A stretch of 64,000 nt of DNA from Isurus oxyrinchus. Taxonomy: Eukaryota. Of the stretch, positions 1,046 through 38,175 are shown one piece after another. The stretch lies in assembly GCA_026770705.1 (NCBI GenBank), contig JANJGN010000034.1:13020001-13084000 (forward strand), written 5' to 3'. Positions within the stretch are counted from its first letter, which is position 1. Each line of letters begins with the position of its first letter. The notes beneath the pieces are model-generated. The model was not told where the DNA came from. It was given only the letters and a program-made list of their open reading frames with translations, and made no database searches. The position numbers were made by a program, and so were the translations under genes.

Positions 1046-1624
1046 ATTGAATTAAGTCAAAAAGGAAGTGAAATTGCAAACTTTGCAAAAGTGTTTGTGT
1101 ATGAGCTGGATCCCAGATAAATCAATCCAGCTTAATATAAACACCATTGCAGCCAGGCTGCCTTTTGCCTACCCAAGTATCTCTCTGTTAGGGTTACTCA
1201 ATCCTAATGTCGAAATCACTCCTCTCGAACTTCGCAATGCGAGTGGAGGCTTTTCACAACGATGTGAAAGATTTCTCTTTCCACTACACCTAATCCTGAA
1301 AGTGGAAGTTAGAACCACAACTGAGAGCAAATGGGAGCATGTTATTGTGCCCAGTTTCCCATGGAGTATAAGTGTCCCCGGAGAACTTCAATTAGCTGAG
1401 AGACTCAATGACTGAAGCACAACAAGCTTTCGGGCGGAACAGACTGCTTTCTTTCATGGGAGCTTTACTACAGATACTAAGCATCCAAAAGCAGCTACTG
1501 ACACGTTCATTTCTACTCCCGATGTCTACTGATGACGTTCATAGGCAATTCTGGTAAAGTGAATCTTTCACTGCTGGTTGGTCAGCTGCTGTAAATTGAC
1601 AGGTGAGTAGGTGTATAGGCAGGT

Positions 1625-4600
1625 AGGTAGATGGTTACAAGGCAGAGAGACAGGCAGGTGGGTACAAGGCAGAGAGACAGGCAGGTGGGTACAAGGCAGA
1701 GAGACAGGCAGGTGGGTACAAGGCAGAGAGACAGGCAGGTGGGTACAAGGCAGAGAGACAGGCAGGTGGGTACAAGGCAGAGAGACAGGCAGGTGGGTAC
1801 AAGGCAGAGATATAGGCAGGTGGGTACAAGGCAGAGAGACAGGCAGGCAGGTGGAAACAAGGCAGAGAGACAGGCAGGCGGGCGGGTACAAGGCAGAGAG
1901 ACAGGCAGGCAGGTGGAAACAAGGCAGAGAGACAGGCAGGCGGGTGGGTACAAGGCAGAGAGACAGGCAGGTGGGTACAAGGCAGAGAGACAGGCAGGTG
2001 GGTACAAGGCAGAGACAGGCAGGCGGGTAGATACAAGGCAGAGAGACAGGCAGGTGGGTGGGTACAAGGCAGAGAGACAGGCAGGTGGGTGGGTAAAAGA
2101 CAGAGAGAGACAGGCAGCCATGTACAAGGAAGAGAGACAGGAAGGCAGGTGGGTACAAGGCAGAGAGACAGGCAGGCAGGCAGGTACAAGGAAGAGAGAC
2201 AGGAAGGCAGGTGGGTACAAGGCAGAGAGACAGGTGGGTGGGTAAAAGACAGAGAGACAGGCGGGTGGGTACAAGGCAGAGAGACAGGCAGGCGGGTAGG
2301 CACAAGGCAGAGAGACAGGCAGGCAGGTGGGTACAAGGCAGAGGGACAGGCACGTGGGTGGGTACAAGGCAGAGAGACAGGCATGTGGGTACAAGGCAGA
2401 GAGACAGGCAGGTGGGTACAAGGCAGAGAGACAGGCAGGCAGGTGGGTACAAGGCAGAGAGACAGGCAGGCAGGTGGGTACAAGGCAGAGAGACAGTCAG
2501 GCAGGAGGGAACAAGGCAGAGATATAGGCAGGCAGGTGGGTACAAGGCAGAGATATAGACAGGCAGGTGGGTACAAGGCAGAGATATAGGCAGGTGGGTA
2601 CAAGGCAGAGAGACAGGCAGGCAGGTGGGTACAAGGCAGAGAGACAGGCAGGCGGGTGGGTACAAGGCAGAGAGACAGGCAGGTGGGTTCAAGGCAGAGA
2701 GACAGGCGGGTGGGTACAAGGCAGAGAGACAGGCAGGCAGGTGGAAACAAGGCAGAGAGACAGGCAGGTGGGTGGGTACGAGGCAGAGAGACAGGCAGGT
2801 GGGTGGGTAAAAGACAGAGAGAGACAGGCAGGCAGGTACAAGGAAGAGAGACAGGAAGGCAGGTGGGTACAAGGCAGAGACAGGCGGGTGGGTAAAAGAC
2901 AGAGAGACAGGCGGGTGGGTACAAGGCAGAGAGACAGGCAGGTGGGTGGGCACAAGGCAGAGAGACAGGCAGGCAGGTGGGTACAAGGCAGAGAGACAGG
3001 CACGTGGGTGGGTACAAGGCAGAGAGACAGGCAGGTGGGTACAAGGCAGAGAGACAGGCAGGCAGGTGGGTACAAGGCAGAGAGACAGGCAGGCAGGTGG
3101 GTACAAGGCAGAGAGACAGGCAGGCAGGAGGGAACAAGGCAGAGACATAGGCAGGCAGGTGGGTACAACACAGAGATATAGACAGGCAGGTGGGTACAAG
3201 GCAGAGAGACAGGCAGGTGGGTACAAGGCAGAGAGACAGGCAGGCAGGTGGAAACAAGGCAGAGAGACAGGCAGGCAGGTGGGTACAAGGCAGAGAGACA
3301 GGCATGTGGGTACAAGGCAGAGAGACAGGCAGGTGGGTGGGTGCAAGGCAGAGAGACAGGCAGGCAGGTGGGTACAAGGCAGAGAGACAAGCAGGTGGGT
3401 ACAAGGCAGAGATGTAGGCAGGTGGGTACAAGGCAGAGAGACAGGCAGGCAGGTGGAAACAAGGCAGAGAGACAGGCAGGCGGGTGGGTACAAGGCAGAG
3501 AGACAGGCAGGTGGGTAACAAGGCAGAGAGACAGGCAGGTGGGTGGGTGCAAGGCAGCGAGACAGGCAGGCGGGTGCAAGGCAGAGAGACAGGCAGGTGG
3601 GTGGATGCAAGGCAGAGAGACAGGCAGGTGGGTGCAAGGCAGAGAGACAGGCAGGTGGGTGGGTGCAAGGCAGAGAGACAGGCAGGTGGGTACAAGGCAG
3701 AGAGACAGGCAGGTGGGTGGGTAAAAGACAGAGAGAGACAGGCAGCCATGTACAAGGAAGAGGGACAGGAAGGCAGGTGGGTACAAGGCAGAGAGACAGG
3801 CAGGCAGGCAGGTACAAGGCAGAGAGACAGGCAGGCAGGTGGGCACAAGGCAGAGAGACAGGCAGGCAGGTGGGTACAAGGCAGAGGGACAGGCACGTGG
3901 GTGGGTACAAGGCAGAGAGACAGGCATGTGGGTACAAGGCAGAGAGACAGGCAGGTGGGTACAAGGCAGAGAGACAGGCAGGCAGGTGGGTACAAGGCAG
4001 AGAGACAGGCAGGCAGGTGGGTACAAGGCAGAGAGACAGTCAGGCAGGAGGGAACAAGGCAGAGATATAGGCAGGCAGGTGGGTACAAGGCAGAGATATA
4101 GACAGGCAGGTGGGTACAAGGCAGAGATATAGGCAGGTGGGTACAAGGCAGAGAGACAGGCAGGCAGGTGGGTACAAGGCAGAGAGACAGGCAGGCGGGT
4201 GGGTACAAGGCAGAGAGACAGGCAGGTGGGTTCAAGGCAGAGAGACAGGCGGGTGGGTACAAGGCAGAGAGACAGGCAGGCAGGAGGGAACAAGGCAGAG
4301 ACATAGGCAGGCAGGTGGGTACAACACAGAGATATAGACAGGCAGGTGGGTACAAGGCAGAGAGACAGGCAGGTGGGTACAAGGCAGAGAGACAGGCAGG
4401 CAGGTGGAAACAAGGCAGAGAGACAGGCAGGCAGGTGGGTACAAGGCAGAGAGACAGGCATGTGGGTACAAGGCAGAGAGACAGGCAGGTGGGTGGGTGC
4501 AAGGCAGAGAGACAGGCAGGTGGGTACAAGGCAGAGAGACAAGCAGGTGGGTACAAGGCAGAGATGTAGGCAGGTGGGTACAAGGCAGAGAGACAGGCAG

Positions 4601-7600
4601 GCAGGTGGAAACAAGGCAGAGAGACAGGCAGGCGGGTGGGTACAAGGCAGAGAGACAGGCAGGTGGGTAACAAGGCAGAGAGACAGGCAGGTGGGTGGGT
4701 GCAAGGCAGCGAGACAGGCAGGCGGGTGCAAGGCAGAGAGACAGGCAGGTGGGTGGATGCAAGGCAGAGAGACAGGCAGGTGGGTGCAAGGCAGAGAGAC
4801 AGGCAGGTGGGTGGGTGCAAGGCAGAGAGACAGGCAGGTGGGTACAAGGCAGAGAGACAGGCAGGCAGGTGGGTACAAGACAGAGAGACATGCAGGTGGG
4901 TGGGTACAAGGCAGAGAGACAGGCAGGCAGGTGGGTACAAGACAGAGAGACATGCAGGCAGGAGGGAACAAGGCGGAGAGACAGGCAGGCAGGTATAGGC
5001 AGAGAGACAGGCAGGCGGGTGGGTACAAGGCAGATATATGGGCAGGCAGGTGGGTACAAGGCAGAGAGACAGGAAGTGGAAACAAGGCAGATAGACAGGC
5101 AGGTGGGTACAAGGCAGAGAGACAGGCAGGCAGGTGGGTACAAGGCAGAGAGACAGGCAGGCAGGTGGGTACAAGGCAGAGAGACAGACAGGCAGGAGGG
5201 AACAAGGCAGAGAGACAGGCAGGCAGGTGGGCATAAGGCAGAGAGACAGGCAGGCAGGTGGGTACAAGGCAGAGGGACAGGCAGGTGGGTACAAGGCAGA
5301 GAGACAGGCAGGCAGGAGGGTACAAGGCAGAGAGACAGGCAGGCAGGTGGGTACAAGGCAGAGAGACAGGCAGGCAGGTGGGTACAAGGCAGAGAGACAG
5401 GCAGACGGGTGGGTACAAGGCAGAGAGACAGGAAGGCAGGTGGGTACAAGGCAGAGAGACAGGCAGACGGGTGGGTACAAGGCAGAGAGACAGGAAGGCG
5501 GAGGGAACAAGGCAGAGAGACAGGCAGGCAGGTGGGTACAAGGCAGAGAGACAGGCAGGTGGGTGGGTACAAGGCAGAGAGACAGGCAGGCGGGTATAAG
5601 GCAAAGAGACAGGCAGGTGGGTGGGTACAAGGCATAGAGACGGGCAGGTGGGTGGGTACAAGGCAGAGAGACAGGCAGGTGGGTGGGTACAAGGCAGAGA
5701 GACACGCAGGCGGGTATAAGGCAGAGAGACAGGCAGGTGGGTATAAGGCAAAGAGACAGGCAGGTGGGTGGGTACAAGGCATAGAGACAGGCAGGTGGGT
5801 GGGTACAAGGCAGAGAGACAGGCAGGTGGGTGGGTACAAGGCAGAGAGACAGGCAGGCGGGTATAAGGCAGAGAGACAGGCAGGTGGGTATAAGGCAGAG
5901 AGACAGGCAGGCGGGTATAAGGCAGAGAGACAGGCAGGTGAGTGGATGCAAGGCAGAGAGACAGGCAGGTGGGTGGGTGCAAGGCAGAGAGACAGGCAGG
6001 CGGGTATAAGGCAGAGAGACAGGCAGGTGGGTGGGTGCAAGGCAGAGAGACAGGCAGGTGGGTATAAGGCAGAGAGACAGGCAGGCGGGTGAGTTCAAAT
6101 AAGAGAGACAGACAGGCAGCTGGTTACAAGGCAGAGAGACAGGCAGGCAGGTACAAGGCAGAGAGACAGGCAGGCGGGTGGATACAAGGCAGAGAGACAG
6201 GCAGGCAGGTGGGTACAAGGCAGAGAGACAGGCAGGCGGGTGGATACAAGGCAGAGAGAGAGGCAGGCAGGTACAAGGCAGAGAGACAGGCAGGCGGGTG
6301 GATACAAGGCAGAGAGACAGGCTGATGGGTGGGTACATGGCAGTGAGACATGCAGAAATGTTGGTACAAGGCAGAGAGACAGGCAGGCAGGTGGGTACAA
6401 GGCAGAGAGACAGGCAGGCGGGTGGGTACAAGGCAGAGAGACAGGCAGGCAGGCAGGTACAATGCAGAGAGACAGGCAGGCAGGAGGGAACAAGGCAGAG
6501 AGACAGGCAGGCGGGTATAGGCAGAGAGACAGGCACGCGGGTGGGTACAAGGCAGATATATAGGCAGGCAGGTGGGTACAAGGCAGAGAGACAGGCAGGC
6601 GGGTATAAGGCAGAGAGACAGGCAGGTGAGTGGATGCAAGGCAGAGAGACAGGCAGGTGGGTGGGTGCAAGGCAGAGAGACAGGCAGGCGGGTATAAGGC
6701 AGAGAGACAGGCAGGTGGGTGGGTGCAAGGCAGAGAGACAGGCAGGTGGGTATAAGGCAGAGAGACAGGCAGGCGGGTGAGTTCAAATAAGAGAGACAGA
6801 CAGGCAGCTGGTTACAAGGCAGAGAGACAGGCAGGCAGGTACAAGGCAGAGAGACAGGCAGGCGGGTGGATACAAGGCAGAGAGACAGGCAGGCAGGTGG
6901 GTACAAGGCAGAGAGACAGGCAGGCAGGTGGGTACAAGGCAGAGAGACAGGCAGGCGGAGGGAACAAGGCAGAGAGACAGGCAGGCAGGTGGGTACAAGG
7001 CAGAGAGACAGGCAGGTGGGTGGGTACAAGGCAGAGAGACAGGCAGGCGGGTATACGGCAGAGAGCAGGCAGGCGGGTATAAGGCAGAGTGACAGGCAGA
7101 CAGGTGGGTACAAGGCAGAGAGACAGGCAGGTGGGTGGGTACAAGGCAGAGAGACAGGCAGGCGGGTATAAGGCAGAGAGACAGGCAGGCGGGTATAAGG
7201 CAGAGAGACAGGCAGGTGGGTGGGTACAAGGCATAGAGACAGGTAGGTGGATGGGTACAAGGCAGAGAGACAGGCAGGTGGGTGGGTACAAGGCAGAGAG
7301 ACACGCAGGCGGGTATAAGGCAGAGAGACAGGCAGGCGGGTATAAGGCAGAGAGACAGGCAGGCAGGTACAAGGCAGAGAGACAGGCAGGCGTGTGGATA
7401 CAAGGCAGAGAGACAGGCTGATGGGTGGGTACATGGCAGTGAGACATGCAGAAATGTTGGTACAAGGCAGAGAGACAGGCAGGCAGGTGGGTACAAGGCA
7501 GAGAGACAGGCAGGCAGGTGGGTACAAGGCAGAGAGGCAGGCAGGAGGGTGGGTACAAGGCAGAGAGACAGGCAGGCAGGCAGGTACAAGGCAGAGAGAC

Positions 7601-9900
7601 AGGCAGGCAGGAGGGAACAAGGCAGAGAGACAGGCAGGCGGGTATAGGCAGAGAGACAGGCAGGCGGGTGGGTACAAGGCAGATATATAGGCAGGCAGGT
7701 GGGTACAAGGCAGAGAGACAGGCAGTGGAAACAAGGCAGATAGACAGGCAGGTGGGTACAAGGCAGAGAGACAGGCAGGCAGGTGGGTACAAGGCAGAAA
7801 GACAGACAGGCAGGAGGGAACAAGGCAGAGAGACAGGCAGGCAGGAGGGAACAAGGCAGAGAGACAGGCAGGCAGGTGGGTACAAGGCAGAGAGACAGGC
7901 AGGTGGAGGGAACAAAGCAGAGAGACAGGCAGGCAGGTGGGTACAAGGCAGAGAGACAGGCAGATGGGTGGGTACAAGGCAGAGAGACAGGCAGGCGATA
8001 ATAAGGCAGAGAGACAGGCAGGCGGGTATAAGGCAGAGAGACAGGCAGGTGGGTGGGTACAAGGCATAGAGACAGGCAGGTGGGTGGGTACAAGGCAGAG
8101 AGATACGCAGGCGGGTATAAGGCAGAGAGACAGGCAGGTGGGTATAAGGCAGAGAGACAGGCAGGCGGGTATAAGGCAGAGAGACAGGCAGGTGGGTATA
8201 AGGCAGAGAGACAGGCAGGCGGGTACAAGGCAGAGAGACAGGCAGGCGGGTGTGTTCAAATAAGAGAGACAGACAGGCAGCTGGTTACAAGGCAGAGAGA
8301 CAGGCAGGCAGGTACAAGGCAGAGAGACAGGCAGGCGGGTGGATACAAGGCAGAGAGACAGGCTGATGGGTGGGTACATGGCAGTGAGACATGCAGAAAT
8401 GTTGGTACAAGGCAGAGAGACAGGCAGGCAGGTGGGTACAAGGCAGAGAGACAGGCAGGCAGGTGGGTACAAGGCAGAGAGACAGGCAGGCGGGTGGGTA
8501 CAAGGCAGAGAGACAGGCAGGCAGGAGGGTACAAGGCAGAGAGACAGGCAGGCGGGTGGGTACAAGGCAGAGAGACAGGCAGGCAGGAGGGTACATGGCA
8601 GAGAGACAGGCTGTTGGGTGGGTATAAGGCAGAGAGACAGGCAGGTGGGTATAAGGCAGAGAGACAGGCAGGCTGGTATAAGGCAGAGAGACAGGCAGGC
8701 GGGTACAAGGCAGAGAGACAGGCAGGCGGGTATAAGGCAGAGAGACAGGCAGGTGGGTATAAGGCAGAGAGACAGGCAGGCGGGTACAAGGCAGAGAGAC
8801 AGGCAGGTGGGTACAAGGCAGAGAGACAGGCAGGTGGGTGGGTGCAAGGCAGAGAGACAGGCAGGTGGGTACAAGGCAGAGAGACAGGCAGGTGGGTGGG
8901 TGCAAGGCAGAGAGACAGGCAGGTGGGTACAAGGCAGAGAGACAGGCAGGTGGGTGGGTGCAAGGCAGAGAGACAGGCAGGCGGGTGTAAGGCAGAAAGA
9001 CAGGCAGGTGAGTGGGTGCAAGGCAGAGAGACAGGCAGGCAGGTGGGTGCAAGGCAGAGAGACAGGCAGGTGGGTGGGTGCAAGGCAGAGAGACAGGCAG
9101 GCGGGTATAAGGCAGAGAGACAGGCAGGTGTGTGGGTGCAAGGCAGAGAGGCAGGCAGGTGGGTATAAGGCAGAGAGACAGGCAGGCGGGTGAGTTCAAA
9201 GAAGAGAGTCAGCTGGGTACAAAGCAGACAGACAGGCAGGCAGGTTGGTACAAGGCAGAGAGACAGGCAGGTTGGTACAAGGCAGAGAGACAGGCAGGCA
9301 GGTACAAGGCAGAGAGACAGGCAGGCAAGTTGGTACAAGGCAGAGAGACAGGCAGGCGGGTGGATACAAGGCAGAGAGACAGGCAGGCAGGTGGGTACAA
9401 GGCAGAGAGACATGCAGGCGGGTGGATACAAGGCAGAGAGACAGGCAGGCAGGTACAAGGCAGAGAGACAGGCAGGCGTGTGGATACAAGGCAGAGAGAC
9501 AGGCTGATGGGTGGGTACATGGCAGTGAGACATGCAGAAATGTTGGTACAAGGCAGAGAGACAGGCAGGCAGGTGGGTACAAGGCAGAGAGACAGGCAGG
9601 CAGGTGAGTACAAGGCAGAGAGACAGGCAGGCGGGTGGATACAAGGCAGAGAGACAGGCAGGCAGGCAGGTACAAGGCAGGAAGACAGGCAGGCGTGTGG
9701 ATACAAGGCAGAGAGACAGGCAGGCAGGTGGGTACAAGGCAGAGAGACAGGCTGATGGGTGGGTACATGGCACTGAGATAGGCAGGCGGGTGGGTACAAG
9801 GCAGAGAGACAGGCAGGCAGGCGGGTACAAGGCAGAGAGACGGGCAGTGGGTACAAGGCAGAGAGACTGGCAGTCAGGTGGGTGCAAGGCAAAGAGACCT
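1625..9900 (+). repeat. 8.3-kb minisatellite, variable 27-35 bp unit (gggtacaaggcagagagacaggca[ggca]ggt)
   Basis: Continuous tandem units with recurring variant blocks; explains all long ORFs between 1568 and 9963. Confidence 0.98.
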
Positions 9901-11664: not shown

Positions 11665-12388
11665 TCATCTGTAAAGGAAGAGTTTGTTAGAAAGACAGTT
11701 AGCTGTAAGCTGCAGGAGGATATCAATGGACTGGACAGATGGGCAGGTCAGTGGCAAATGGAATTCAACACGGAAAAGTTTGGGGTAATGCACTTGGGGA
11801 GGGCTAACAAGGCAAGGGGTTACACTAGGAATGGTAGAACCCTGGAAAGTACTGGAGATCAGAGAGACCTTGGTGTGCCTATGCACAGATCCCTGAGGGT
11901 AGCTGGGCAGGTAGATGAAGTGGTTAAGAAGACATATGGAGCTACTTGCCTTTAATAGCTGGGGCATGGAATACAAGAGCAGGGAGGTTATGCTGGAACT
12001 GCGTAAAGTGCTGGTTAGACCACAACTGGAGTACTGTGTGCAGTTCTGGTAACCACATTGTAGGAAGGGTGTGATTGCACTGGAGAGGGTGCAGAGGGGA
12101 TTTACCAGGATGCTGTCTGGGCTGGAGAGTCTGAGCTATGAGGAAAGATGGATAGGCTGGGGTTGTTTTCCTTGGAGCAGTGAAGATTGAGAGGGGTAAA
12201 AACAAAAAACTGCGGATGCTGGAAATCCAAAACAAAAACAGAATTACCTGGAAAAACTCAGCAGGTCTGGCAGCATCGGCGGAGAAGAAAAGAGTTGATG
12301 TTTCGAGTCCTCATGACCCTTCGACAGAACTTGATTTCGAGTCCAAGAAAGAGTTGAAATATAAGCTGGTTTAAGGTGTGTGTGTGTG

Positions 12389-18729: not shown

Positions 18730-21150
18730 CGCCTCCTCCTTTACTCCGCCTCCTCCTTTACTCCACCTCCTCCTTTACTCCGCCTCCTCATTTACACCGC
18801 CTTCCGCCTCGTCCATTACTCCACCTCCGCCTTTTCTCCGCCTCCACATTTACTTCGCCTCCTCCTTTACTCCACCTCCTCCTTTACCCCGCCTCCTCCT
18901 TTACCACGTCTCCTCCTTTACTCCGCCGCCTCCTTTACTCCACCTCCTCCTTTACCCCGCCTCCTCCTTTACCACGTCTCCTCCTTTACTCCGCCGCCTC
19001 CTTTACTCCACCTCCTCCTTTACCCCGCCTCCTCCTTTACCACGTCTCCTCCTTTACTCCGCCGCCTCCTTTACTCCACCTCCTCTGTTACTCCTCCTCC
19101 TCCTTTACTTTGCCTCCTCCTTTACTCCACCTCCTCCTTTACTCCACCTCCTTTACTCCGCCTCCTCCTTTACTCCACCTTCCCCTTTACTTTGCCTCCT
19201 CCTTTACTCCGCCTTCTGCTTTACTCCGCCTTCTGCTTTACTCCTCCTCCTTTACTCCGCCTCCTCCATTACTCCGCCTCCTCCTTTACTCCACCTCCTC
19301 CTTTACTCCACCTTCCCCTTTACTTTGCCTCCTCCTTTACTCCACCTCCTCCTTTACTCCGCCTTCTCCTTTACTCCGCCTTCTGCTTTACTCCACCTCC
19401 TCCTTTACTCCGCCTCCTCCTTTACTCCGCCTTCTCCTTTACTCCGCCTCCTCCATTACTCCGCCTCCTCCTTTACTCCGCCTCCTCCTTTACTCCACCT
19501 CCTCCTTTACTCCACCTCCTCCTTTACTCCACCTCCTCCTTTACTCCTCCTCCACCTTTACTCCGCCTCTTCCTTTACTCCACCTTTCCCTTTACTTTCT
19601 CTCCTCATTTACTCCACCATCTCCGTTACTCCACCTCCTCCTTTACTCCACCTCATTTACTCCGCCTCCTCCTTTACTCCGCCTTCTCCTTTACTCCACC
19701 TCCTCCTTTACTCCACCTCCTTCTTTACTCCACCTCCTCCTTTACTCCGCCTTCTCCTTTACTCCACCTCCTCCTTTACTCCACCTCCTTCTTTACTCCA
19801 CCTCCTCCTTTACTCCGCCTTCTCCTTTACTCCACCTCCTCCTTTACTCCGCCTCCTCATTTACACCGCCTTCCGCCTCGTCCATTACTCCACCTCCTCC
19901 TTTACTCCACCTCCTCCTTTACTCCACCTCCTTCTTTACTCCACCTCCTTCTTTACTCCACCTCCTCCTTTACTCCGCCTTCTCCTTTACTCCACCTCCT
20001 CCTTTACTCCACCTCCTTCTTTACTCCACCTCCTCCTTTACACCGCCTTCTCCTTTACTCCACCTCCTCCTTTACTACACCTCCTCCTTTACTCCGCCTT
20101 CTCCTTTACTCCACCTCCTCCTTTACTACACCTCCTCCTTTACTCCACCTCCTTCTTTACTCTGCCTCCTTCTTTACTTTGCCTCCTCCTTTACTCCGCC
20201 TCCTCCTTTACTACACCTCCTCCTTTACTCCGCCTCCTCCTTTACTCCGCCCCCTCCTTTACTCTGCCTCCTCCTTTACTCCGCCCCCTCCTTTACTCCG
20301 CCCCCTCCTTTACTCCGCCTCCTCCTTTACTCCGCCTCCTCCTTTACTCCGCCTCCTCCTTTACTCCACCTCCTCCTTTCCTCCACCTCCTCCTTTACTC
20401 CACCTCCTCCTTTACTACACCTCCTCCTTTACTCCACCTCCTCCTTTCCTCCACCTCCTCCTTTACTCCACCTCCTCCTTTACTCCACCTCCTCCTTTCC
20501 TCCACCTCCTCCTTTACTCCACCTCCTCCTTTACTCCACCTCCTCCTTTCCTCCACCTCCTCCTTTACTCCACCTCCTCCTTTACTACACCTCCTCCTTT
20601 ACTCCACCTCCTCCTTTACTCTGCCTTCTCCTTTACTTTGCCTCCTCCTTTACTCCACCTCCTCCTTTACTCCGCCTCCTCCTTTACTCCGCCCCCTCCT
20701 TTACTCCGCCTCCTCCTTTACTCCACCTCCTCCTTTCCTCCACCTCCTCCTTTACTCTGCCTTCTCCTTTACTTTGCCTCCTCCTTTACTCCACCTCCTC
20801 ATTTACTTTGCCTCCTCCTTTACTCCACCTCCTTCTTTACTCTGCTTCCTCCTTTACTCCACCTCCTCCTTTACTCCACCTCCTCCTTTACTCCACCTCC
20901 TCCTTTACTACACCTCCTCCTTTACTCCACCTCCTCCTTTACTTTGCCTCCTACTTTACTCCACCTCCTCCTTTACTCCTCCTCCACCTTTACTCCGCCT
21001 CTTCCTTTACTCCACCTTTCCCTTTACTTTCTCTCCTCATTTACTCCACCTCCTCCTTTACTTTGCCTCCTACTTTACTCCACCTCCTCCTTTACTCCAC
21101 CTCCTCCTTTACTCCACCTCCTCCTTTACTCCACCTCCTCCTTTACTCCC
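18730..21150. repeat. 17-bp pyrimidine-rich minisatellite (actccacctcctccttt)n, 2.4 kb, intronic
   Basis: Directly visible; explains ORFs at 18688-21220. Confidence 0.97.
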
Positions 21151-26468: not shown

Positions 26469-26484
26469 TGCCTCTAAATGTATA

Positions 26485-27824
26485 AAACAAAAACAGAATT
26501 ACCTGGAAAAACTCAGCAGTTCTGGCAGCATCGGCGGAGAAGAAAAGAGTTGACGTTTCGAGTCCTCATGACCCTTCGACAGAACTTGAGTTCGAGTCCA
26601 AGAAAGAGTTGAAATATAAGCTGGTTTAAGGTGTGTGTTGAGGGGGGGGGGGGGTGCGGAGAGAGAGAGAGAGAAGTGGAGGGGGTTGGTGTGGTTGTAG
26701 GGACAAACAAGCAGTGATAGAAGCAGATCATCAAAAGATGTCACCAACAATAGAACAAAACAACACATAGGTGTTAAAGTTGGTGATATTATCTAAACGA
26801 ATGTGCTAATTAAGAATGGATGGTAGGGCACTCAAGGTATAGCTCAAGTGGGGGTGGGGAGAGCATAAAAGATTTTAAAATATTTAAAAATATTGGAAAT
26901 AGGTGGGAAAAGAAAAATCTATATAATTTATTGGAAAAAAAACAAAAGGAAGGGGGAAACAGAAAGGGGGTGGGGATGGGGGAGGGAGCTCAAGACCTAA
27001 AGTTGTTGAATTCAATATTCAGACCGGAAGGCTGTAAGGTGCCTAGTCGGAAGATAAGGTGTTGTTCCTCCAGTTTGCGTTGGGCTTCACTGGAACAATG
27101 CAGCAAGCCAAGGACAGACATGTGGGCAAGAGAGCAGGGTGGAGTGTTAAAATGGCAAGCGACAGGGAGGTTTGGGTCATTCTTGCGGACAGACCGCAGG
27201 TGTTCTGCAAAGCGGTCGCCCAGTTTACGTTTGGTCTCTCCAATGTAGAGGAGACCACATTGGGAGCAACGAATGCAGTAGACTAAGTTGGGGGAAATGC
27301 AAGTGACATGCTGCTTCACTTGAAAGGAGTGTTTGGGCCCTTGGACGGTGAGGAGAGAGGAAGTGAAGGGGCAGGTGTTAAATCTTTTGCGTGGGCATGG
27401 GGTGGTGCCATAGGAGGGGGTTGAGGAGTAGGGGGTGATGGAGGAGTGGACCAGGGTGTCCCGGAGGGAGCGATCCCTACGGAATGCCGATAAGGGGGGT
27501 GAAGGGAAGATGTGTTTGGTGGTGGCATCATGCTGGAGTTGGCGGAAATGGCGGAGGATGATCCTTTGAATGCAGAGGCTGGTGTGGTGATAAGTGAGGA
27601 CAAGGGGGACCCTATCATGTTTCTGGGAGGGAGGAGAAGGCGTGAGGGCGGATGGGCGGGAGATGGGCCGGACACGGTTGAGGGCCCTGTCAACGACCGT
27701 GGGTGGAAAACCTCGGTTAAGGAAGAAGGAGGACATGTCAGAGGAACTGTTTTTGAAGGTAGCATCATCGGAACAGATGTGACGGCGGTGAAGGAACTGA
27801 GAGAATGGGATGGAGTCCTTACAG
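26485..27824 (-). mobile_element. PLE inverted arm (RT C-terminus, GIY-YIG, 3' UTR)
   Basis: ORF 26990-27970 with KDSIPFSQF and NLVYCIRC..LYIGET; reverse complement of about 28730-30060. Confidence 0.95.
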
Positions 27825-30093
27825 TTCGTCAACTGGCAGACACTTCCTCCTACCTCTCCCTGGACCATGACCCCACCACTGAACATCAAGCCATTGTTTC
27901 CAGGACTGTCACTGACCTCATCTCCTCTGGGGATCTTCCTCCCACAGCTTCCAACCTGATAGTCACCCAACCTCAGACGGCCCGCTTCTATCTCCTACCC
28001 AAAATCCACAAACAGAACTGCCCCGGTAGACCGATCATGTCAGCTTGCTCCTGCCCCACAGAACTCATTTCTCGTTATCTTGACTCCCTTCTCTCTCCCC
28101 TTGTCCAGTCCCTTCCCACCTACATCCGTGATTCCTCTGACACCTTACATCACATGAACAATTTCCAGTTCCCTGGCCCTAACCGCTTCCTCTTCACCAT
28201 GGACGTCCAATCCCTCTACACCTCCATCCCCCACCAGGATGGTCTGAGGGCCCTTAGCTTCTTCCTCGAACAGAGGCCTGAACAATCCCCATCCACCACT
28301 ACTCTCCTCCGTCTGGCTGAACTTGTTCTCATGCTAAACAATTTCTCCTTCAACTCCTCTCACTTCCTCCAAATAAAAGGTGTGGCTATGGGTACCCGCA
28401 TGGGCCCCAGCTATGCCTGTCTCTTTATGGGGTATGTGGAACATTCCTTGTTCCAGTCCTACTCCGGCTCCCTTCCACAACTCTTTCTCCGGTACATCAA
28501 TGATTACTTCGGTGCCGCTTCATGCTCTCGTTGGGACTTGGAAAAATTTATTAATTTTGCTTCCAATCTCCACCCCTCCATCATTTTCACGTGTTCCATC
28601 TCTGACACTTCCCTTCCCTTCCTTGACCTCTCTGTCTCAATCTCTGGTGATAGACTGTCCACCAATATCCATTACAAACCCACCGACTCCCACAGCTACC
28701 TCGACTACAGCTCCTCACACCCCACTTCCTGTAAGGACTCCATCGCATTCTCTCAGTTCCTTCACCTCCGTCGCATCTGTTCTGATGATACTACCTTCAA
28801 AAACAGTTCCTCTGACATGTCCTCCTTCTTCCTTAACCGAGGTTTTCTACCCACAGTCGTTGACAGGGCCCTCAACCGTGTCCGGCCCATCTCCCGCGCA
28901 TCCGCCCTCACGCCTTCTCCTCCCTCCCAGAAACATGATAGGGTCCCCCTTGTCCTCACTTATCACCCCATCAGCCTCCGCATTCAAAGGATCATCCTCC
29001 GCCATTTCCGCCAACTCCAGCATGATGCCACCACCAAACACATCTTTCCTTCACCCCCCTTATCGGCATTCCATAGTGATCGCTCCCTCCGGGACACCCT
29101 GGTCCACTCCTCCATCACCCCCTACTCCTCAACCCCCTCCTATGGCACCACCCCATGCCCACGCAAAAGATGCATCACCTGCCCCTTCACTTCCTCTCTC
29201 CTCACCGTCCAAGGGCCCAAACACTCCTTTCAAGTGAAGCAGCATTTCACTTGCATTTCCCCCAACTTAGTCTACTGCATTCGTTGCTCCCAATGTGGTC
29301 TCCTCTACATTGGAGAGACCAAACGTAAACTGGGCAACCGCTTTGCAGAACACCTGCAGTCTGTCCGCAAGAATGACCTAAACCTCCCTGTCGCTTGCCA
29401 TTTTAACACTCCACCCTGCTCTCTTGCCCACATGTCTGTCCTTGGCTTGCTGCATTGTTCCAGTGAAGCCCAACGCAAACTGGAGGAACAACACCTTATC
29501 TTCCGACTAGGCACCTTACAGCCTTCCAGACTGAATATTGAATTCAACAACTTTAGGTCTTGAGCTCCCTCCCCCATCCCCACCCCCTTTCTGCTTCCCC
29601 CTTCCTTTTGTTTTTATTTCCAATAAATTATATAGATTTTTCTTTTCCCACCTATTTCCATTATTTTTAAATATTTTAAAATCTTTTATGCTCCCCCCAC
29701 CCCTACTAGAGCTGTACCTTGAGTGCCCTACCATCCATTCTTAATTAGCACATTCGTTTAGATAGTGTCACCAACTTTAACACCTATGTGTTGTTTTGTT
29801 CTATTGTTGGTGACATCTTTTGATGATCTGCTTCTATCACTGCTTGTTTGTCCCTACAACCACACCACCCCTCCACTTCTCTCTCTCTCTCCGCCCCCCC
29901 TGCCCCCCACACACCTTAAACCAGCTTATATTTCAACTCTTTCTTGGACTCGAACTCAAGTTCTGTCGAAGGGTCATGAGGACTCGAAATGTCAACTCTT
30001 TTCTTCTCCGCCGATGCTGCCAGACCTGCTGAGTTTTTCCAGGTAATTCTTTTTTTGTTTTGGATTTCCAGCATCCGCAGTTTTTTTTGTTTT
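27825..30093 (+). mobile_element. 5'-truncated PLE with uninterrupted RT plus GIY-YIG ORF (stop at 29563)
   Basis: FYLLPKIHK, GRPI, MDVQSLYTSIP, GVAMG, FLRYINDYF (YIDD altered to YIND), PFLDL, YKPT, LVYCIRC..YIGET. Confidence 0.96.
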
Positions 30094-31610
30094 TGCCTCT
30101 AAATATATGTTTGTTTGTGAGCAAGGAAGCCTTTCTCTGTGAGCTTTAATGTTTTCCTTCCTTAGATTGTCATTTGTGTGTGTAGTTCAGCATTTTAGAG
30201 TTGAAAGCCCATGTTAGATTAAAGGAAAAGTATACTCAAACATTCCGAAGTTTTGAGCATAAGGTTTGAATTGAGATTTCTGGCAAAAAAAATCACAATT
30301 TGAAGTTATAGTAAAGCTAAACAGGCTTCGATGAACCAACCTTTGTACCACCTCCTTGCAGATTGGTATCACCAGCTTCCAAGCTGATTGGGATTGATAT
30401 ATATGAGTTGCATTAACTTGTACGAGTTAGTATTCTAAAATTCTGAGGAAAAAGTTACCTGAAGTTCAAAGGATTCTAGGAATACCAAAAGGCATAAACA
30501 CATGGTCTAGGTGGTTCCAATGGATAAAAAGGGGTTTCTTTTGAAGAGATGAATTAAAATATTAAAGGAAATCTGCTTTCCAAAAGCACTGTAATTTGAA
30601 TTTGGGACAATCTTGAGATGTAAAGTGCAGTGTAATTTAACAGGTTACTTTGAATAACGAGGATGCTATCTAAGGTTAAGAATGTGTTGATAAACATATG
30701 GGACTTCTAATCTGGATACAAATCATTAAACATGAAAAAAGAGGTTGTTTTAATTTTGATAGTGTAAATTACAGTTCTTACAAAGTTTAAAAATTTGAGG
30801 TTCGGTTCCTGATAATTTCTCAAAAGGGAATTTTCATTTTAAAAGGTTTTTGACAACAATTGGCACTAATTCAAATGCTGCAAGCTTTTGTATTTGTAAA
30901 GTCTGTTCCCAAAATGTGAAACTAAGCTCAAGACCTTGACACAGTTTGGCAGAAATCCAATTTTTGGCTGAGTTAATGAATCTGGTATAATTCTAAGGGT
31001 CAGACACAATTTAGTGGGTTATTTTTGAGACAATAAAGTGTTTTTTGAGAAGAAGATAAGGAAGCAAAACATGTCAATGCCTGATTTCTGTTTTAAAACA
31101 GCTATGAGAATATTTTACTTATTTTAAAGTCTCTCTGAACAAGATCAGATGGTAGCTGGTGTATGTGTATGAGGCAAGGAGGAGAAAGAGTTAGGGAAAG
31201 AGGATACAATATACAAACTGTTTTAAGGGAAGCGAATTTGATAATCTGGCCATCGGCTGAGACATTGGAAAAGCACAGGGGGAGATAAGCAAGGATCTAG
31301 AGACAGAGATCCTCGTTGATGTGGAATAGTTAAAAGGGCCTAAAGAGCAAGGAAACATTATAAACGATCAAGACAATAGAGAAACTGAACTCAAAAGAAT
31401 CTTAGGATGATCATAATCAGGGGAAAAAAACTTAGAGGTTATACTATGTGGAATCTATAGTTCAGGCATTTGAAAGGTAAGGAGAAATAACAGTTAATAA
31501 CAATTTACCACAAGATGGATACTGGTAAAGGGAAAGCTGGAAAAAGGCTAAATAGATGTATTACTGACTAAATTAATGAAAGACCACAGACGATTAATGT
31601 CAATCTCACA

Positions 31611-32604: not shown

Positions 32605-33126
32605 CACACACACATATACATACACTCTCTCTCTCTCTCTCTCTCATGCACACAGACACACACACATACAGGCACTGAGAGCTCAGAGGGTTAATGTCAA
32701 TCTCACTCCAGTCAACCAGGGAATAAATTCGAAGAATAACACAAGCAAAATTGAAACTCGTTGAGTTTCATTCTGGATTAGGCACTGCAAGTTTATCCCC
32801 ACCGTACATTGATGATGTGACTGCTGACTGACTTCAAGACAAACATTAAATTTGACTCTTTACTCGGTTAGCTGTAAATATATCAGGGTGTAAAGCATCT
32901 GAGAGCACAGCTGATATGAAAAAGGTGGAATACAGCGTGGGTAATGGAGAGTGAAGCTCCTCTATAGAATGAATGGTTCTTGTTGTTGGTGAATTTAGGA
33001 GCTGGAGTTTATGTTTGAAGAGGTTCCTAGTGCCTCTAACAGCTGAACTGGGGCCTCTGGGAAGAGAGGCTATGCCTGCTGTTGTTTCCCCTCCTGTCCA
33101 CTGGAGGCCCATCTTGCTCTCCTCAG

Positions 33127-34545
33127 GAGAGAGAAGAGAGAGAAAAGGGACAGAGAGTAAAAAAGAGACAGAGGGAGAGAGAAAAAAGAGACAGAGGGAG
33201 AGAGAAAAAAGAGACAGAGGGAGAGAGAAAAAAGAGACAGAGGGAGAGAGAAAAAAGAGACAGAGGGAGAGAGAAAAAAGAGACAGAGGGAGAGAGAAAA
33301 AAGAGACANNNNNNNNNNNNNNNNNNNNNNNNNNNNNNNNNNNNNNNNNNNNNNNNNNNNNNNNNNNNNNNNNNNNNNNNNNNNNNNNNNNNNNNNNNNN
33401 NNNNNNNNNNNNNNNNNNNNNNNNNNNNNNNNNNNNNNNNNNNNNNNNNNNNNNNNNNNNNNNNNNNNNNNNNNNNNNNNNNNNNNNNNNNNNNNNNNNN
33501 NCAGAGAGTAAAGAGACAGAGGGAAAGAGAACGAGACAGAGAGAAAAGTGAGAGAGAACAAAGACATTGAGAGAGAAAAAGAGAGAGAGAGAAAAAAGAG
33601 AGAGAAAAAAGAGAGAGAAAAAAGAGACAAAGAGAGAGAAAAAGAGATGGAGAGAGAGAGAGAGAAAGAGACAGAGAGAGAGTAAGAGGCAGACAGAGAG
33701 AGACAAAAGAGACAGAGGGAGAGAGAAAAAAGAGACAGAGAGAGACAGAGAGAGAAATAGATGGACAGAGAGAGAAAAAGAGACAGAGGGAGAGAGAAAA
33801 AGAGACAGAGAGAGAAAAAAGAAACAAAGAGAGTAAAGAAGCAGAGAGAGAAAAAAAGAGATAGGGAGAGAGAGAAAAGGGAACAGAGTAAAGAGGCAGA
33901 GAGAGATGAAAACAGACACAGAGAGAGAAAGAGACAGAGAGAGAAAAAGACAGAAAATAGAGATAGATAGAAAGAAACAGACAGAGAGAGAAAAAGAGAC
34001 ACGTAGAGAAAAAGAGAGAAAATAGAGACAGAGAAAGAAAGAAACAGGCAGAGAGAGAAAAAGACTCAGAGAAAACGAGACAGAGAGAGAGAAAAGGAAG
34101 AGAGGTAGATAAAAAAGAGACAGAGAGAGAAAAAAAGAGAGGGAGAGAAAGAGAGAGAGGAAGAGAAAAAAAGAAACAGAGAGTAAAGAGACAGAGGGAA
34201 AGAGAACGAGACAGAGAGAAAAGTGAGAGAGAACAAAGACATAGAGAGAGAAAAAGAGAGAGAGAGAAAAAAGAGAGAGAAAAAAGAGACAAAGAGAGAG
34301 AAAAAGAGACAGACAGAAAAGGAAACAGAGAGAGAGAAAAGAGATGGAGAGAAAAAAAAGACGGGAAGAGAGAAAAACAGACAGAGAGAGAAAAACAGAT
34401 AGAGAGAGAGAAAAGGCAGAGAGAGAAAAAAAGAGACGGGGAAAAAGACAGAGAGAAAAACAGAGAGAGAGAAAAGGCAGAGAGAGAGAAAGAGAGACAA
34501 AGGGAAAAAGACAGAGAAAGAAAAAAAGACAGGCAGAGAAAAAAT
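33127..34545. repeat. AG-rich low-complexity tract with an N gap
   Basis: Directly visible (agagacagagggagagagaaaaa units). Confidence 0.95.
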
Positions 34546-35071
34546 CAGCTGGGGCTGCGATTCAGGCAATATCTTCACCCTCACACAAACCTCAGAGGCA
34601 AACTTGACATGTTTGTGTTTGAAAAATATACTTTATTCTTAAAATATCTGTAAGATCATTACAAAACACTTCAAAATGGCCATCACAAAAAGGGCAATCA
34701 CATTCCAGTCTTTCCAGAGGCAAACTTCACACACCGATGTACTAAACTCAGGCAATCCACATGCGGAGAGACAGAATGGCTGTCAAACTCACCCTGACAT
34801 ACCTCCAGGTGGGTCAGGCCTCCCAAATCACAGTTCGTCCAATCAGGTGCCAGCTACCTCCACCGCACACACAGGTATGGGGCAGATCAAGGTTGATCTT
34901 GGTGGAATGGGAGGGTGGGGGTAGAGGGGGATGGAGAGGGTAACCTCCAGGCAAATGGTTTAGCCCAGAGCTGTCTCTGTCCTTGTCTGCACTAGTCCCA
35001 AGCCACAGAACCAATGGAATACACAAAGGCTCCAATTTAAAGCGTGATGCCAGCCAGCATATCCTGGGAAC

Positions 35072-35932
35072 AGGTCTGACAGCATCTGTGGAGAGGAAGA
35101 CAGAGTTAACGTTTCGAGTCCTTATGACTCTTCAAGAGCCATACGGACTCGAAAAGTTAACCCTGTCTGAAGAGTCATACGGACTCGAAACGTTAACTCT
35201 ATCTGAAGAGTCATACGGACTCGAAACGTTAACCCTGTCTGGAGAGTCGTACGGACTCAAAACGTTAACTCTGTCTGAAGAGTCATACGGACTTGAAACG
35301 TTAAGCCTGTCTGAAGAGTCATACGGACTCGAAATGTTAACTCTGAAGAGTCATACGGACTCGAAACGTTAACCCTGTCTGAAGAGTCATACGGACTCGA
35401 AATGTTAACCCTGTCTGAAGAGTCATACGGACTCGAAATGTTAACCCTGTCTGAAGAGTCATACGGACTCGAAATGTTAACCCTGTCTGAAGAGTCGTAC
35501 GGACTCGAAACGTTAACTCTGTCTGAAGAGTCATACGGACTTGAAACGTTAAGCCTGTCTGAAGAGTCATACGGACTCGAAATGTTAACTCTGAAGAGTC
35601 ATACGGACTCGAAACGTTAACCCTGTCTGAAGAGTCATATGGACTTGAAATGTTAACCCTGTCGGGAGAGTCATACGGACTTGAAATGTTAACCCTGTCT
35701 GGAGAGTCATACGGACTCGAAACATTAACCCTGTCTGGAGAGTCATACGGACTCGAAACGTTAACTCTGTCTGAAGAGTCATACGGACTCGGAATGTTAA
35801 CCCTGTCTGAAGAGTCATACGGACTCGAAACGTTAACTGTATTCCTCTCCGCAGATGCTGTCAGACCTGCTGAGTTTTTCCAGCTATTTTTGTTTTTGTT
35901 TCAGATTTCCAGCATCCACAGTCTTTTGCTAT
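35072..35932 (+). mobile_element. PLE-derived insertion: short inverted 3' piece, about 20 x 36-bp hammerhead-like units, PLE tail; 12-bp TSD
   Basis: Unit ctgtctgaagagtcatacggactcgaaacgttaacc; tatcctgggaac at 35060-35071 and 35933-35944; tail matches the PLE at 62903-63035. Confidence 0.9.
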
Positions 35933-36249
35933 TATCCTGGGAACGGCCGGTTTCACATTCACTGCTCATTTCAACTGCATGAAAGCAGGTAGCTTGCTTA
36001 CAGCGTGGAGAGGGAGAGATCAGAAATGTTCCACTGAATTTAAACACACGTGCAATGACTCCAATGATTTGAATTACTCCACCCTTGATCAGGCCAGAAG
36101 CTTGGTCAGGTGTAAAGAGAATTCTTCATTTCCTTCAAATCTACTTTATTAGTGAACATTTATCCAAAGTGCATGACATAACCGTTCAAAGCAGACATTA
36201 TAGAAGGGCCAAACCAAAACAGTTCCTTCCCATTCTGTTAGTAACTCAC

Positions 36250-36650
36250 TGCAGAGTAGATCACCCTCTACACTGTCCCAAACACTCCCAGGACAGGGAC
36301 AGCACGCGGTTAGATACAGAGTAAAGCTCCCTCTCCACTGTCCCAAACACTCCCAGGACAGGGACAGCACGCGGTTAGATACAGAGTAAAGCTCCTTCTC
36401 CACTGTCCCAAACACTCCCAGGACAGGTACAGCACGGGGTTAGATACAGAGTAAAGCTCCCTCTACACTGACCCCATCAAACACTCCCAGGACAGGTACA
36501 GCACGGGGTTAGATACAGAGTAAAGCTCCCTCTACACTGTCCCCATCAAACATTCCCAGGACAGGTACAGCACAGGGTTAGATACAGAGTAAAGCTCCCT
36601 CTACACTGTCCCCATCAAACACTCACAGGACAGGGTTAGACAGAGAGTCA
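36250..36650. repeat. 65-69 bp tandem repeat, about 6 copies
   Basis: ctccctctacactgtccccatcaaacactcccaggacaggtacagcacggggttagatacagagtaaag units visible. Confidence 0.92.
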
Positions 36651-37057
36651 CCCTCACTCTGCACTATCCTGTCACTGCAACCCGATATTTGAAATGATAC
36701 AATGCTGCCAGATTGTGGTCATCAACTATTACTGCAGGGACTACATGAAATATCGGCAGGTGTAGGGGGAGGGAATGTGCTTTGTCAAGGAGGGACAGAA
36801 CAAATCTTCAAATTAACCACACACCTCAGGTACAAATCCTTATCACCCTCCTAATAGGGTGTGCCATTCATGAGCTCGGGATAATGCCTTGAAATCAGAA
36901 ACCCTTCCTGTTCAGACACGTTTCTTTGATAGAGGCAAAGGTTACAAAATATTTTATTAAACTCATCTGCCCACTGGTGGAGGGGGCAGACCAGGACAAC
37001 TCCAGTTACTGACAGACTTGTAAAGCAGCAGCTTTCCCACACTGATTATTGGTAATC

Positions 37058-38175
37058 ATAGAAACATAGAAACTAGGAGCAGGAGAAAGCCATTCGGCCC
37101 TTCGAGCCTGCTCCACCATTCATTATGATCATGGATGATCATCCAACTCAATAGCCTGCTCCCTCTTTCTCCCCATACCCTTTGATCCCTTTCGCCCCAA
37201 GAGCTATATCTAACTCCTTCTTGAAAACATACAATGTTTTGGCCTCAACCTCTTTCTGTGGTAACAAATTCCACAGGCTCACCTCTCTCTGGGTGAAGAA
37301 ATTTCGCCTCATCTCGGTCCTAAATGGTCTACCCCATATCTTCAGACTGTGACCCCTGGTTCTGGACTCCCCCACCATCGGGAACATCCTTCCTGCATCT
37401 ACCCTGTCCAGTCCTGTTAGAATTTTATAGGTTTCTATGAGATCCCCCCTCATTCTTCTGAACTCCAGCGAATATAATCCTAATCGACTCAATCTCTTCT
37501 CATATTTCAGTCTCACTATCCCAGGAATCAGTTGGGTAAATCTTCGCTGCACTCCCTCTATAGCAAGAACATCCTTCCTCAGATAAGGAGATCAAAACTG
37601 CACACAATATTCCAAGTGTGGTCTCACCAAGGCCCTGTATAATTGCAGCAAGACATCCCTGCTTCTGTGCTCGAATCATCTCACTATGAAGGCCAACATA
37701 CCATTTGCTTTCTTTACCGCCTGTTGCACCTGCGTGCTTATCTTCAGCAACTGGTGCACGAGGACACCCAGGTCTCGTTGCACATTCCCCTCTCTCAATT
37801 TATAGCCATTCAGATAATAATCTGCCTTCCTGTTTTTGCTACCAAAATGGAGAGCCTCACATTTATCCATTTTATACTGCATCTGCCATGCATTTGCCCA
37901 CTCACTCAGCTTGTCCAAATCACACTGAAGCCATCTCTGCACCCTCCTCACAGCTCACCCTCCCACCCAGCTTTGTGTCATCTGCAAATTTGGAGATACT
38001 ACATTTAGCTCCCTCATCTAAATCATTAATAGACATTGTGAACAGCTGGGGTCCCAGCACCGACCCCTGCGGTACCCCATTAGTCACTGCCTGCCATTCA
38101 GAAAAAAGACCAGTTTATTTCTACTCTTTGTTCTTTGTTTGCCAACCTGTTTTCCATCCATCTCAATATGGATAG
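37058..38175 (-). mobile_element. CR1-clade LINE 3' fragment
   Basis: ORFs 37676-37951 (LQCDLDKLSEWANAWQM) and 37148-37552; catagaaa tail repeat. Confidence 0.93.

Follow-up and report, generated by a model that had tools for sequence, protein, structure and literature searches.

Positions 35072-35932 of the window (the whole 64-kb stretch of DNA that was analysed) hold an insertion bounded by two copies of a 12-bp target-site duplication (TSD; TATCCTGGGAAC; 35060-35071 and 35933-35944, forward strand), a word that occurs exactly twice in the window, on the two sides of the insert, and that cannot be extended. An earlier, sequence-only reading of the locus had placed an inverted end of a Penelope-like element (PLE), a tandem array and a PLE tail between these TSD copies, and every one of these parts could be located within 35060-35944: a 63-nt inverted arm of subfamily alpha (35072-35134, reverse strand), which begins within the tail and ends in the hammerhead core; a head-to-head junction formed by a short palindrome (CTCT-TCA-AGAG, 35128-35138, unstranded) at the centre of the arm/first-unit hairpin (35094-35175, fold of -40 kcal/mol); tandem units 0-18 (35135-35806, forward strand); and a last hammerhead unit continued by the PLE tail, both of subfamily beta (35807-35932, forward strand, 121/124 identical to the family copy L002). 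The 20 unit starts in the insert (17 units of 36 nt, two of 32 nt at 35311-35342 and 35559-35590, and a 20th running into the tail) agree with the tandem-repeat call (TRF: period 36, 19.8 copies, 90% matches) and with the previously claimed number of about 20 copies of a 36-nt unit, and a 16-nt core motif with 27 matches in the window against 0.01 expected shows that the pattern is not due to chance. The second-order periodicity of 248 bp was recovered as well (TRF: period 248, 2.8 copies, 94% matches), two copies of a seven-unit block lying at 35239-35734 (forward strand, 10 differences in 248) and a third, partial one possibly following after 35734; the variant TTAAGCCT had correctly been placed at 35301 and 35549. 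The insert holds no ORF, and its end sequence amounts to only about 125 nt.

Elsewhere in the window, TRF reported tandem repeats with units of 31 bp (280 copies, 1620-9898), 17 bp (142 copies, 18732-21149) and 69 bp (5.7 copies, 36252-36634), the last of which presumably resembles a repeat of cartilaginous fishes. A Pfam search of 14 nearby ORFs left 13 of them without a match and identified no host gene.

Relationship to a family of Penelope-like elements

The PLE origin assumed for the insertion is borne out by an ORF with reverse transcriptase (RT) and GIY-YIG similarity, situated 5.5 kb from the array and followed by the same PLE end (29955-30095), to which the array tail is identical at 101 of 119 positions. 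The ORF at 27503-29563 matched GIY-YIG with 22.6 bits (at the cut-off) and RVT_1 with an E-value of 1.8e-4 (below the cut-off), ORF P0001 carries a CX4CxxC linker that matches the CX2-5CxxC between RT and endonuclease, and weaker RT/GIY-YIG matches were present upstream of two other copies (L116 and L120). A two-armed, 3.6-kb PLE of the young subfamily gamma, to which this ORF belongs, occupies 26480-30093 (11-bp TSD at 26469 and 30094), its ORF being 5'-truncated and its catalytic motif changed to YIND. Further gamma-type hammerhead ends lie in the window at 12294, 16398/16617 and 63000, one pair of them head to head. When the tail was used as query against the 4.98-Gb genome, dispersed copies at 85-98% identity were retrieved. 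Exact patterns counted genome-wide matched the hammerhead segment found in the older subfamilies 30,754 times, a tail segment 47,060 times and a younger subfamily 112,912 times. The hammerhead motif is situated in the pLTR of the family (a minimal-hammerhead descriptor matched L005, L008 and 4 of 30 unselected copies), and most 3' ends in the family lie around +44..+57 or +82..+85.

Endonuclease-bearing PLEs are described as having head-to-head arms, palindromic junctions, tails and TSDs (PMC3846280, PMC8557442), and the inverted head-to-head arm, the TSD and the optional tail of 30-40 nt are all present at 35060-35944. Since the same end lies behind an RT/GIY-YIG ORF and is accompanied by arms, a palindromic junction, a tail and a TSD, the insert is, judged by its sequence, an end fragment of an endonuclease-bearing PLE. 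The apparent likeness of the element to Neptune-type PLEs, in which a CX2-5CxxC linker has been described (PMC8557442), is based on this linker motif.

Ribozyme status of the tandem units

Intact family copies read AGTT-CTGATGA-A-GAGTC...GACTC-GAAACGTT-AACT, or have a CTGAAGA-A-GAGTC core, with helix I formed by AGTT/AACT. In comparison, the array units (composed of the helix II hairpin, GAAA and the 3' strand of helix I) lack three core bases and AGTT, the 5' strand of helix I. The 3-nt contraction shifts G8 and A9 into helix II, leaving the CUGANGA core not unpaired, and a single pair is possible beside the core where helix I should have at least 3 bp; helix II, GAAA and the palindromic helix III are retained. 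The caveat raised in the sequence-only reading (that the GA of the core overlaps helix II and that helix I is not evident) is hereby explained, whereas its statement that each unit carries CTGAAGA, the hairpin, GAAA and GAAACGTT was right as to the motifs and too strong as to their completeness, all four being combined in 5 of the 20 units (CTGAAGA 15/20, exact hairpin 13/20, GAAA 18/20, GAAACGTT 9/20). The minimal-hammerhead descriptor found nothing on the two strands of the insert, not even when helix I was waived, and the same descriptor matched four of 13 chosen family loci (L005, L008, L082 and L106). A check with hammerhead models had been proposed; an Rfam scan of 33000-38000 matched none of them up to an E-value of 10, a result that is by itself uninformative, the scan having included no intact family copy as control. 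Its top matches were miRNA models that fell on the inverted-arm palindrome below their gathering scores.

Hammerhead chemistry requires G8 and the C3-G8 pair. On these established grounds the array units, with incomplete core and helix I, are predicted to be inactive ribozymes, as had been suspected. The substitutions C3G and G8C are reported to abolish the activity of the PAc ribozyme (PMC11167929). The contraction is common in ordinary family copies (578 matches at up to 2 mismatches) and was therefore probably inherited from the template. Furthermore, the largest subfamily, gamma (112,912 matches genome-wide), has core position A6 changed to U (CUGUCGA) in the copies read and is nevertheless the most numerous, so that a catalytically doubtful hammerhead was no bar to its spread.

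Tandem arrays across the genome

All 17 matches to the array junction obtained genome-wide (at up to 3 mismatches) lie inside the array itself, and no second locus with its 36-nt unit was found in the genome. The sequence-only reading had also suggested looking for similar arrays elsewhere, and a relaxed pattern indeed retrieved 310 tandem junctions genome-wide, which makes the array less unusual than was first assumed. At the 71 loci examined (the places among the first 100 of these 310 matches, on contigs C1-C10, that lay outside an earlier set), we counted 55 dimers, 11 trimers, three arrays of four units, one of five and one of seven; an inverted arm was present in 55 of the 71 and a shared flank word of 10 nt or more in 56, and none of them contained a descriptor-complete hammerhead. 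In a separate case, L078 and L079 (C2:119.566 and 119.575 Mb), one four-unit array insertion is present twice in inverted orientation with a common left flank, its unit including a short antisense piece of the hammerhead core.

Growth and age of the array

Among the units, 37 differences can be traced to 15 distinct changes, and units seven apart are more similar than expected by chance (permutation p = 5e-5 at lag 7, one of 10 lags tested), with an exact run of 132 nt at lag 248. Blocks seven units apart have in common a deletion of 4 nt and a C>G change, besides C>T substitutions at two CpG positions; as CpG changes recur independently, the latter alone would be no proof of common descent, which the deletion and the C>G change do provide. 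The later local duplication postulated in the sequence-only reading is thus substantiated, whereas the nested block duplication with its shared CpG-type changes indicates that already aged DNA was duplicated (i.e. growth at the DNA level) and argues against the idea that all 20 units were made by repeated RT jumping. The 248-bp event accounts for 7 of the 20 units, a test for period 2 in the array gave no significant result (p = 0.22 at lag 2), and for the other 13 units the non-CpG variants common to distant units appear to favour stepwise DNA growth over one RT run.

An alternative would have the PLE RT write most of the units in a single event, returning repeatedly to one 36-nt template to prime anew in the fashion of telomerase or DRT2 (with TCT as the alignment region), only the last block being added as DNA. 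Such a course would be in keeping with the unit starts, which fall near the start of many family copies (10 of 30 tail-selected rows begin within 6 nt of helix I), with the two different junctions found in a single young insertion (L213), with the slight differences in length among the junctions of L192, L239, L241, L243 and L249, and with the common ancestry reported for PLE RTs and telomerase (PMC8557442). TCT (3 nt) stands at both unit ends, and the junctions of the family vary by locus. We nonetheless consider a one-event origin improbable, as units copied from one RNA should start out identical and the distant units here share non-CpG variants; moreover, the majority of arrays stop at two units (55 of the 71 from the first 100 of 310 matches), and longer ones have higher-order periods of their own (period 3 in L218, period 2 in L106).

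With regard to age, two studies of organism B provided contigs that match 34626-35098 (13 differences in 473), all letters continuing 27 nt into the inverted arm (an overlap below the 31-letter mark used for bridging), which points to an insertion older than the split from organism B. An empty site in organism B was at first suggested by the word shares of sequencing runs (0.39-0.46, against 0.60-0.73 for organism A), and the contigs that enter the arm argue against it. The flat cover of the flanks suggests that the runs whose RNA status had been guessed hold DNA.

Clustered sibling insertions

Among the 71 loci (from the first 100 of the 310 matches), 27 pairs have a junction in common, 16 of which lie within 3 Mb on one contig where 0.47 would be expected (mean of 20,000 permutation runs, maximum 6, the pairs not being independent of one another). 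Six clusters of independent insertions (with different TSDs or flanks and one tandem junction each) were recognised among these matches on C1-C10, at C9:4.73-6.41 Mb (L241, L243-L246), C3:231.2-235.4 Mb (L206-L211, L279), C1:139.2-140.0 Mb (L188, L189), C9:3.1-5.0 Mb (L240, L242) and C8:48.0-48.9 Mb (L237, L238). One junction occurs at five places genome-wide, all within 1.7 Mb of C9; a second junction tag is less clean, 5 of its 11 matches being clustered and 6 scattered. Outside the clustered insertions, the long matches among those listed are mostly other PLE copies. These observations point to local spreading of PLE copies (their arrays being passed via RNA to nearby sites) or to local gene conversion. 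As an observation apart, L206 and L207 differ from L211 (the same place as L278) in a 4-nt asymmetric loop at the head-to-head junction, which occurs in both orientations relative to the array and resembles the flip-flop of hairpin ends.

Tentatively, and with more doubt than conviction, we propose that odd hammerhead-dimer junctions could serve as lineage tags of a PLE whose copies land within 0.2-2 Mb of one another on the same chromosome, both ends being freshly primed each time: the element would hop locally from nuclear RNA, and its telomerase-related RT would seed repeats by re-priming where the hammerhead bounds the RNA. The 20-unit array would then be an old and fully grown outcome of this process, and hammerhead retrozyme arrays would be born in the same manner. 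Local hopping has been described as characteristic of DNA transposons of the cut-and-paste type, in contrast to copy-and-paste elements (PMC12477816), and we found no report of local PLE hopping in the open-access literature, which is no proof of its absence. We regard the clustered siblings as a lead worth following and as the testable surprise of the family survey.

The sharing of junctions also bears on the possibility that the array was already contained in a donor element and was retrotransposed to its present site within RNA, as apparently happened in the clusters of the young subfamily, where insertions with different TSDs have one junction in common (the 27 pairs, 16 of them within 3 Mb, and the five places on C9 given above). 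For the array considered here such a history seems unlikely, seeing that all 17 junction matches lie inside it; the nearest long PLE (26480-30093), which we considered as a donor and rejected, belongs to another subfamily and carries a single unit. The array could, however, derive from a donor now lost, since young arrays can be common to several insertions.

Probable seeding of the array at integration

The inverted arm is identical to L061 (subfamily alpha) at 62 of 63 positions and to L002 at 55 of 63, and the array units carry the longer, alpha-length spacer of the arm, whereas L002 (the beta copy that matches the tail) has a shorter one. As arm and units are alpha and the tail is beta, two templates met in one insertion, so that the seed dimer likely formed at integration; of the RT template jumping put forward in the sequence-only reading, a template switch as the seed is therefore retained as likely, being also in accord with the enrichment of arrays at insertion junctions. 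A strict tandem pattern applied genome-wide gave 20 places that represent 19 events, each with its own junction and with unit lengths of 32-50 nt. Inverted arms accompany 15 of these 19 events (their array classes being assigned by eye) as compared to 8 of 30 unselected copies (p = 5e-4), and long upstream PLE sequence precedes none of the 19 as compared to 17 of the 30 (p = 3e-5). Furthermore, the hammerhead is duplicated in tandem about 7 times as often per copy (19 events/30,754) as a neighbouring control segment (4/47,060; p = 3e-5), and all four control cases are also situated at insertion junctions. Most simply, duplications would be seeded by the repair of junctions, with the hammerhead enriched because many copies end there. 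In this respect, besides the tail-selected rows that begin close to helix I, 18 of the 60 rows L125-L184 (4 of which repeat another row) start at -54..-46 from the reference point, corresponding to the start of helix I (a clustering that local alignment to a single reference may inflate), and the short insertions of the family may thus reflect an RNA 5' end at this position.

Three of our earlier propositions were modified. An enrichment of multimers over the hammerhead (7 vs 1, p = 0.008) was withdrawn, the control having two multimers; a fixed GTC|TGAAGAG 5' end (about 12/30 loci) was an artefact of the query start, other first letters dominating in further matches; and the view that every array is situated at a new 5' junction lost force through the natural PLE sequence found upstream of 6 of the 71 arrays (from the first 100 of 310 matches), which implies that not every array was seeded at a new junction. 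The arms of two-armed insertions usually belong to the same subfamily (mean distance 2.0 vs 3.7 when shuffled, in 31 pairs of which some are mispaired), which makes the alpha/beta chimera a minority case, and it could have arisen by later gene conversion instead.

On the whole, we consider it probable that the locus represents a two-armed insertion of a PLE end fragment, the hammerhead segment of which was likely doubled at integration and then likely grew to 20 units as an ordinary minisatellite, the units being predicted inactive. The PLE protein would have cut the two strands at a distance of 12 bp, and each DNA end would have primed cDNA on a PLE RNA end, one alpha and one beta. Both cDNAs would have stopped at the hammerhead, where many family copies begin; the alpha cDNA would then have folded back at the short palindrome and copied 36 nt of itself (we infer such a snap-back from the head-to-head junction), and its joining to the beta cDNA at the 3-nt TCT microhomology would have produced a dimer. 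The same product would have resulted if the beta cDNA had jumped onto the alpha RNA. Slippage or unequal exchange would subsequently have expanded the dimer in steps, one of which was the seven-unit block. In vitro, PAc is reported to have both strands cut and extended, with two internal start sites (PMC11167929), a double-strand activity that, by analogy, could explain the two arms.

This seeding at integration would be superfluous if a normal one-unit insertion had later stuttered by DNA slippage alone, with no special integration event. The hairpin and the short direct repeats at the unit ends (TCT, TCTG) favour slippage, and the core contraction is itself common in the family (the 578 matches noted above); slippage alone is, however, already disfavoured and to us rather improbable, as it accounts neither for alpha-spacer units joined to a beta tail nor for the avoidance of long copies by arrays (0/19 vs 17/30). 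A 36-nt self-cleaving circular RNA copied repeatedly into DNA (a mini-retrozyme), although its unit length would equal the spacing of the would-be cleavage sites (as in any tandem array) and a rolling-circle model has been proposed for PLEs and retrozymes (PMC4209133, PMC7229834), is highly improbable, and the rolling-circle copying of a tiny self-cleaving RNA entertained in the sequence-only reading is dropped with it, since no unit has an intact core or helix I, the junction occurs at one locus, none of the 71 further array loci (first 100 of 310 matches) matched the descriptor, and natural minimal hammerheads are described as weak even if intact (PMC4209133).

Comparison with known systems

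Endonuclease-bearing PLEs (Arkhipova 2013, PMC3846280; Craig 2021, PMC8557442) resemble the present family in their head-to-head arms, palindromic junction and TSD, in two 3' end positions about 35 nt apart, and in an ORF with RT followed by GIY-YIG and a CX4CxxC linker as in the Neptune type. The insert differs from the elements described there in having no ORF, about 125 nt of end sequence and the hammerhead segment repeated 20 times, and its TSD of 12 bp compares with 8-10 bp in the rotifer examples. Intact family copies agree with the minimal type I hammerheads that metazoan PLEs carry (Cervera and de la Pena 2014, PMC4209133) in having an additional base ahead of helix II, a closing G-C pair and the palindromic ACGU at helix III, whereas the array units are set apart from them by the three missing core bases and the missing 5' strand of helix I. 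The in vitro work on PAc Poseidon (Frangieh 2024, PMC11167929) describes two RT start sites that match the tail and insertion for which hammerhead cleavage is unnecessary, results that fit both the two arms and the many family copies with a broken core; PAc belongs to another clade and host, and the main text of that study reports no tandem duplication of the hammerhead segment. Telomerase and DRT2 (Wilkinson 2024, PMC12039810) likewise relate an RT to a tandem array of a short RNA segment, but as described they are programmed and processive and use a dedicated RNA template, whereas here the junctions vary by locus and most arrays are dimers (55/71, first 100 of 310 matches).

Animal non-LTR retrozymes, derivatives of the PLE pLTR (Cervera and de la Pena 2020, PMC7229834; Li, Clavereau, Pollet 2026, bioRxiv 10.64898/2026.07.22.740005), are similarly tandem repeats that originate from a PLE end through local amplification and mostly comprise few units. 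The array shares their derivation from a PLE pLTR; it differs from them in its unit of 36 nt (retrozyme consensus 51-972 bp), in lacking two consecutive complete hammerheads and in being confined to a single locus instead of dispersed at several, although the supplements of the 2026 preprint may list such short arrays. A literature search, mostly at the level of listings, found no publication devoted to duplications of 30-55-nt hammerhead segments at PLE junctions, while the growth of PLE-derived tandem hammerhead repeats by local amplification has already been proposed (bioRxiv 10.64898/2026.07.22.740005). We accordingly place the array at the debris end of this class of repeats, as a mostly ordinary member for which the claim of a tiny replicating ribozyme is not supported. 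Likely inert transposon debris in itself, it has its value as a record of PLE integration, a process still poorly defined, and the use of two templates for a single insertion, the arrest at the hammerhead and the growth of a dimeric seed into a minisatellite together offer a concrete path by which the repeats of the 2026 preprint could be born.
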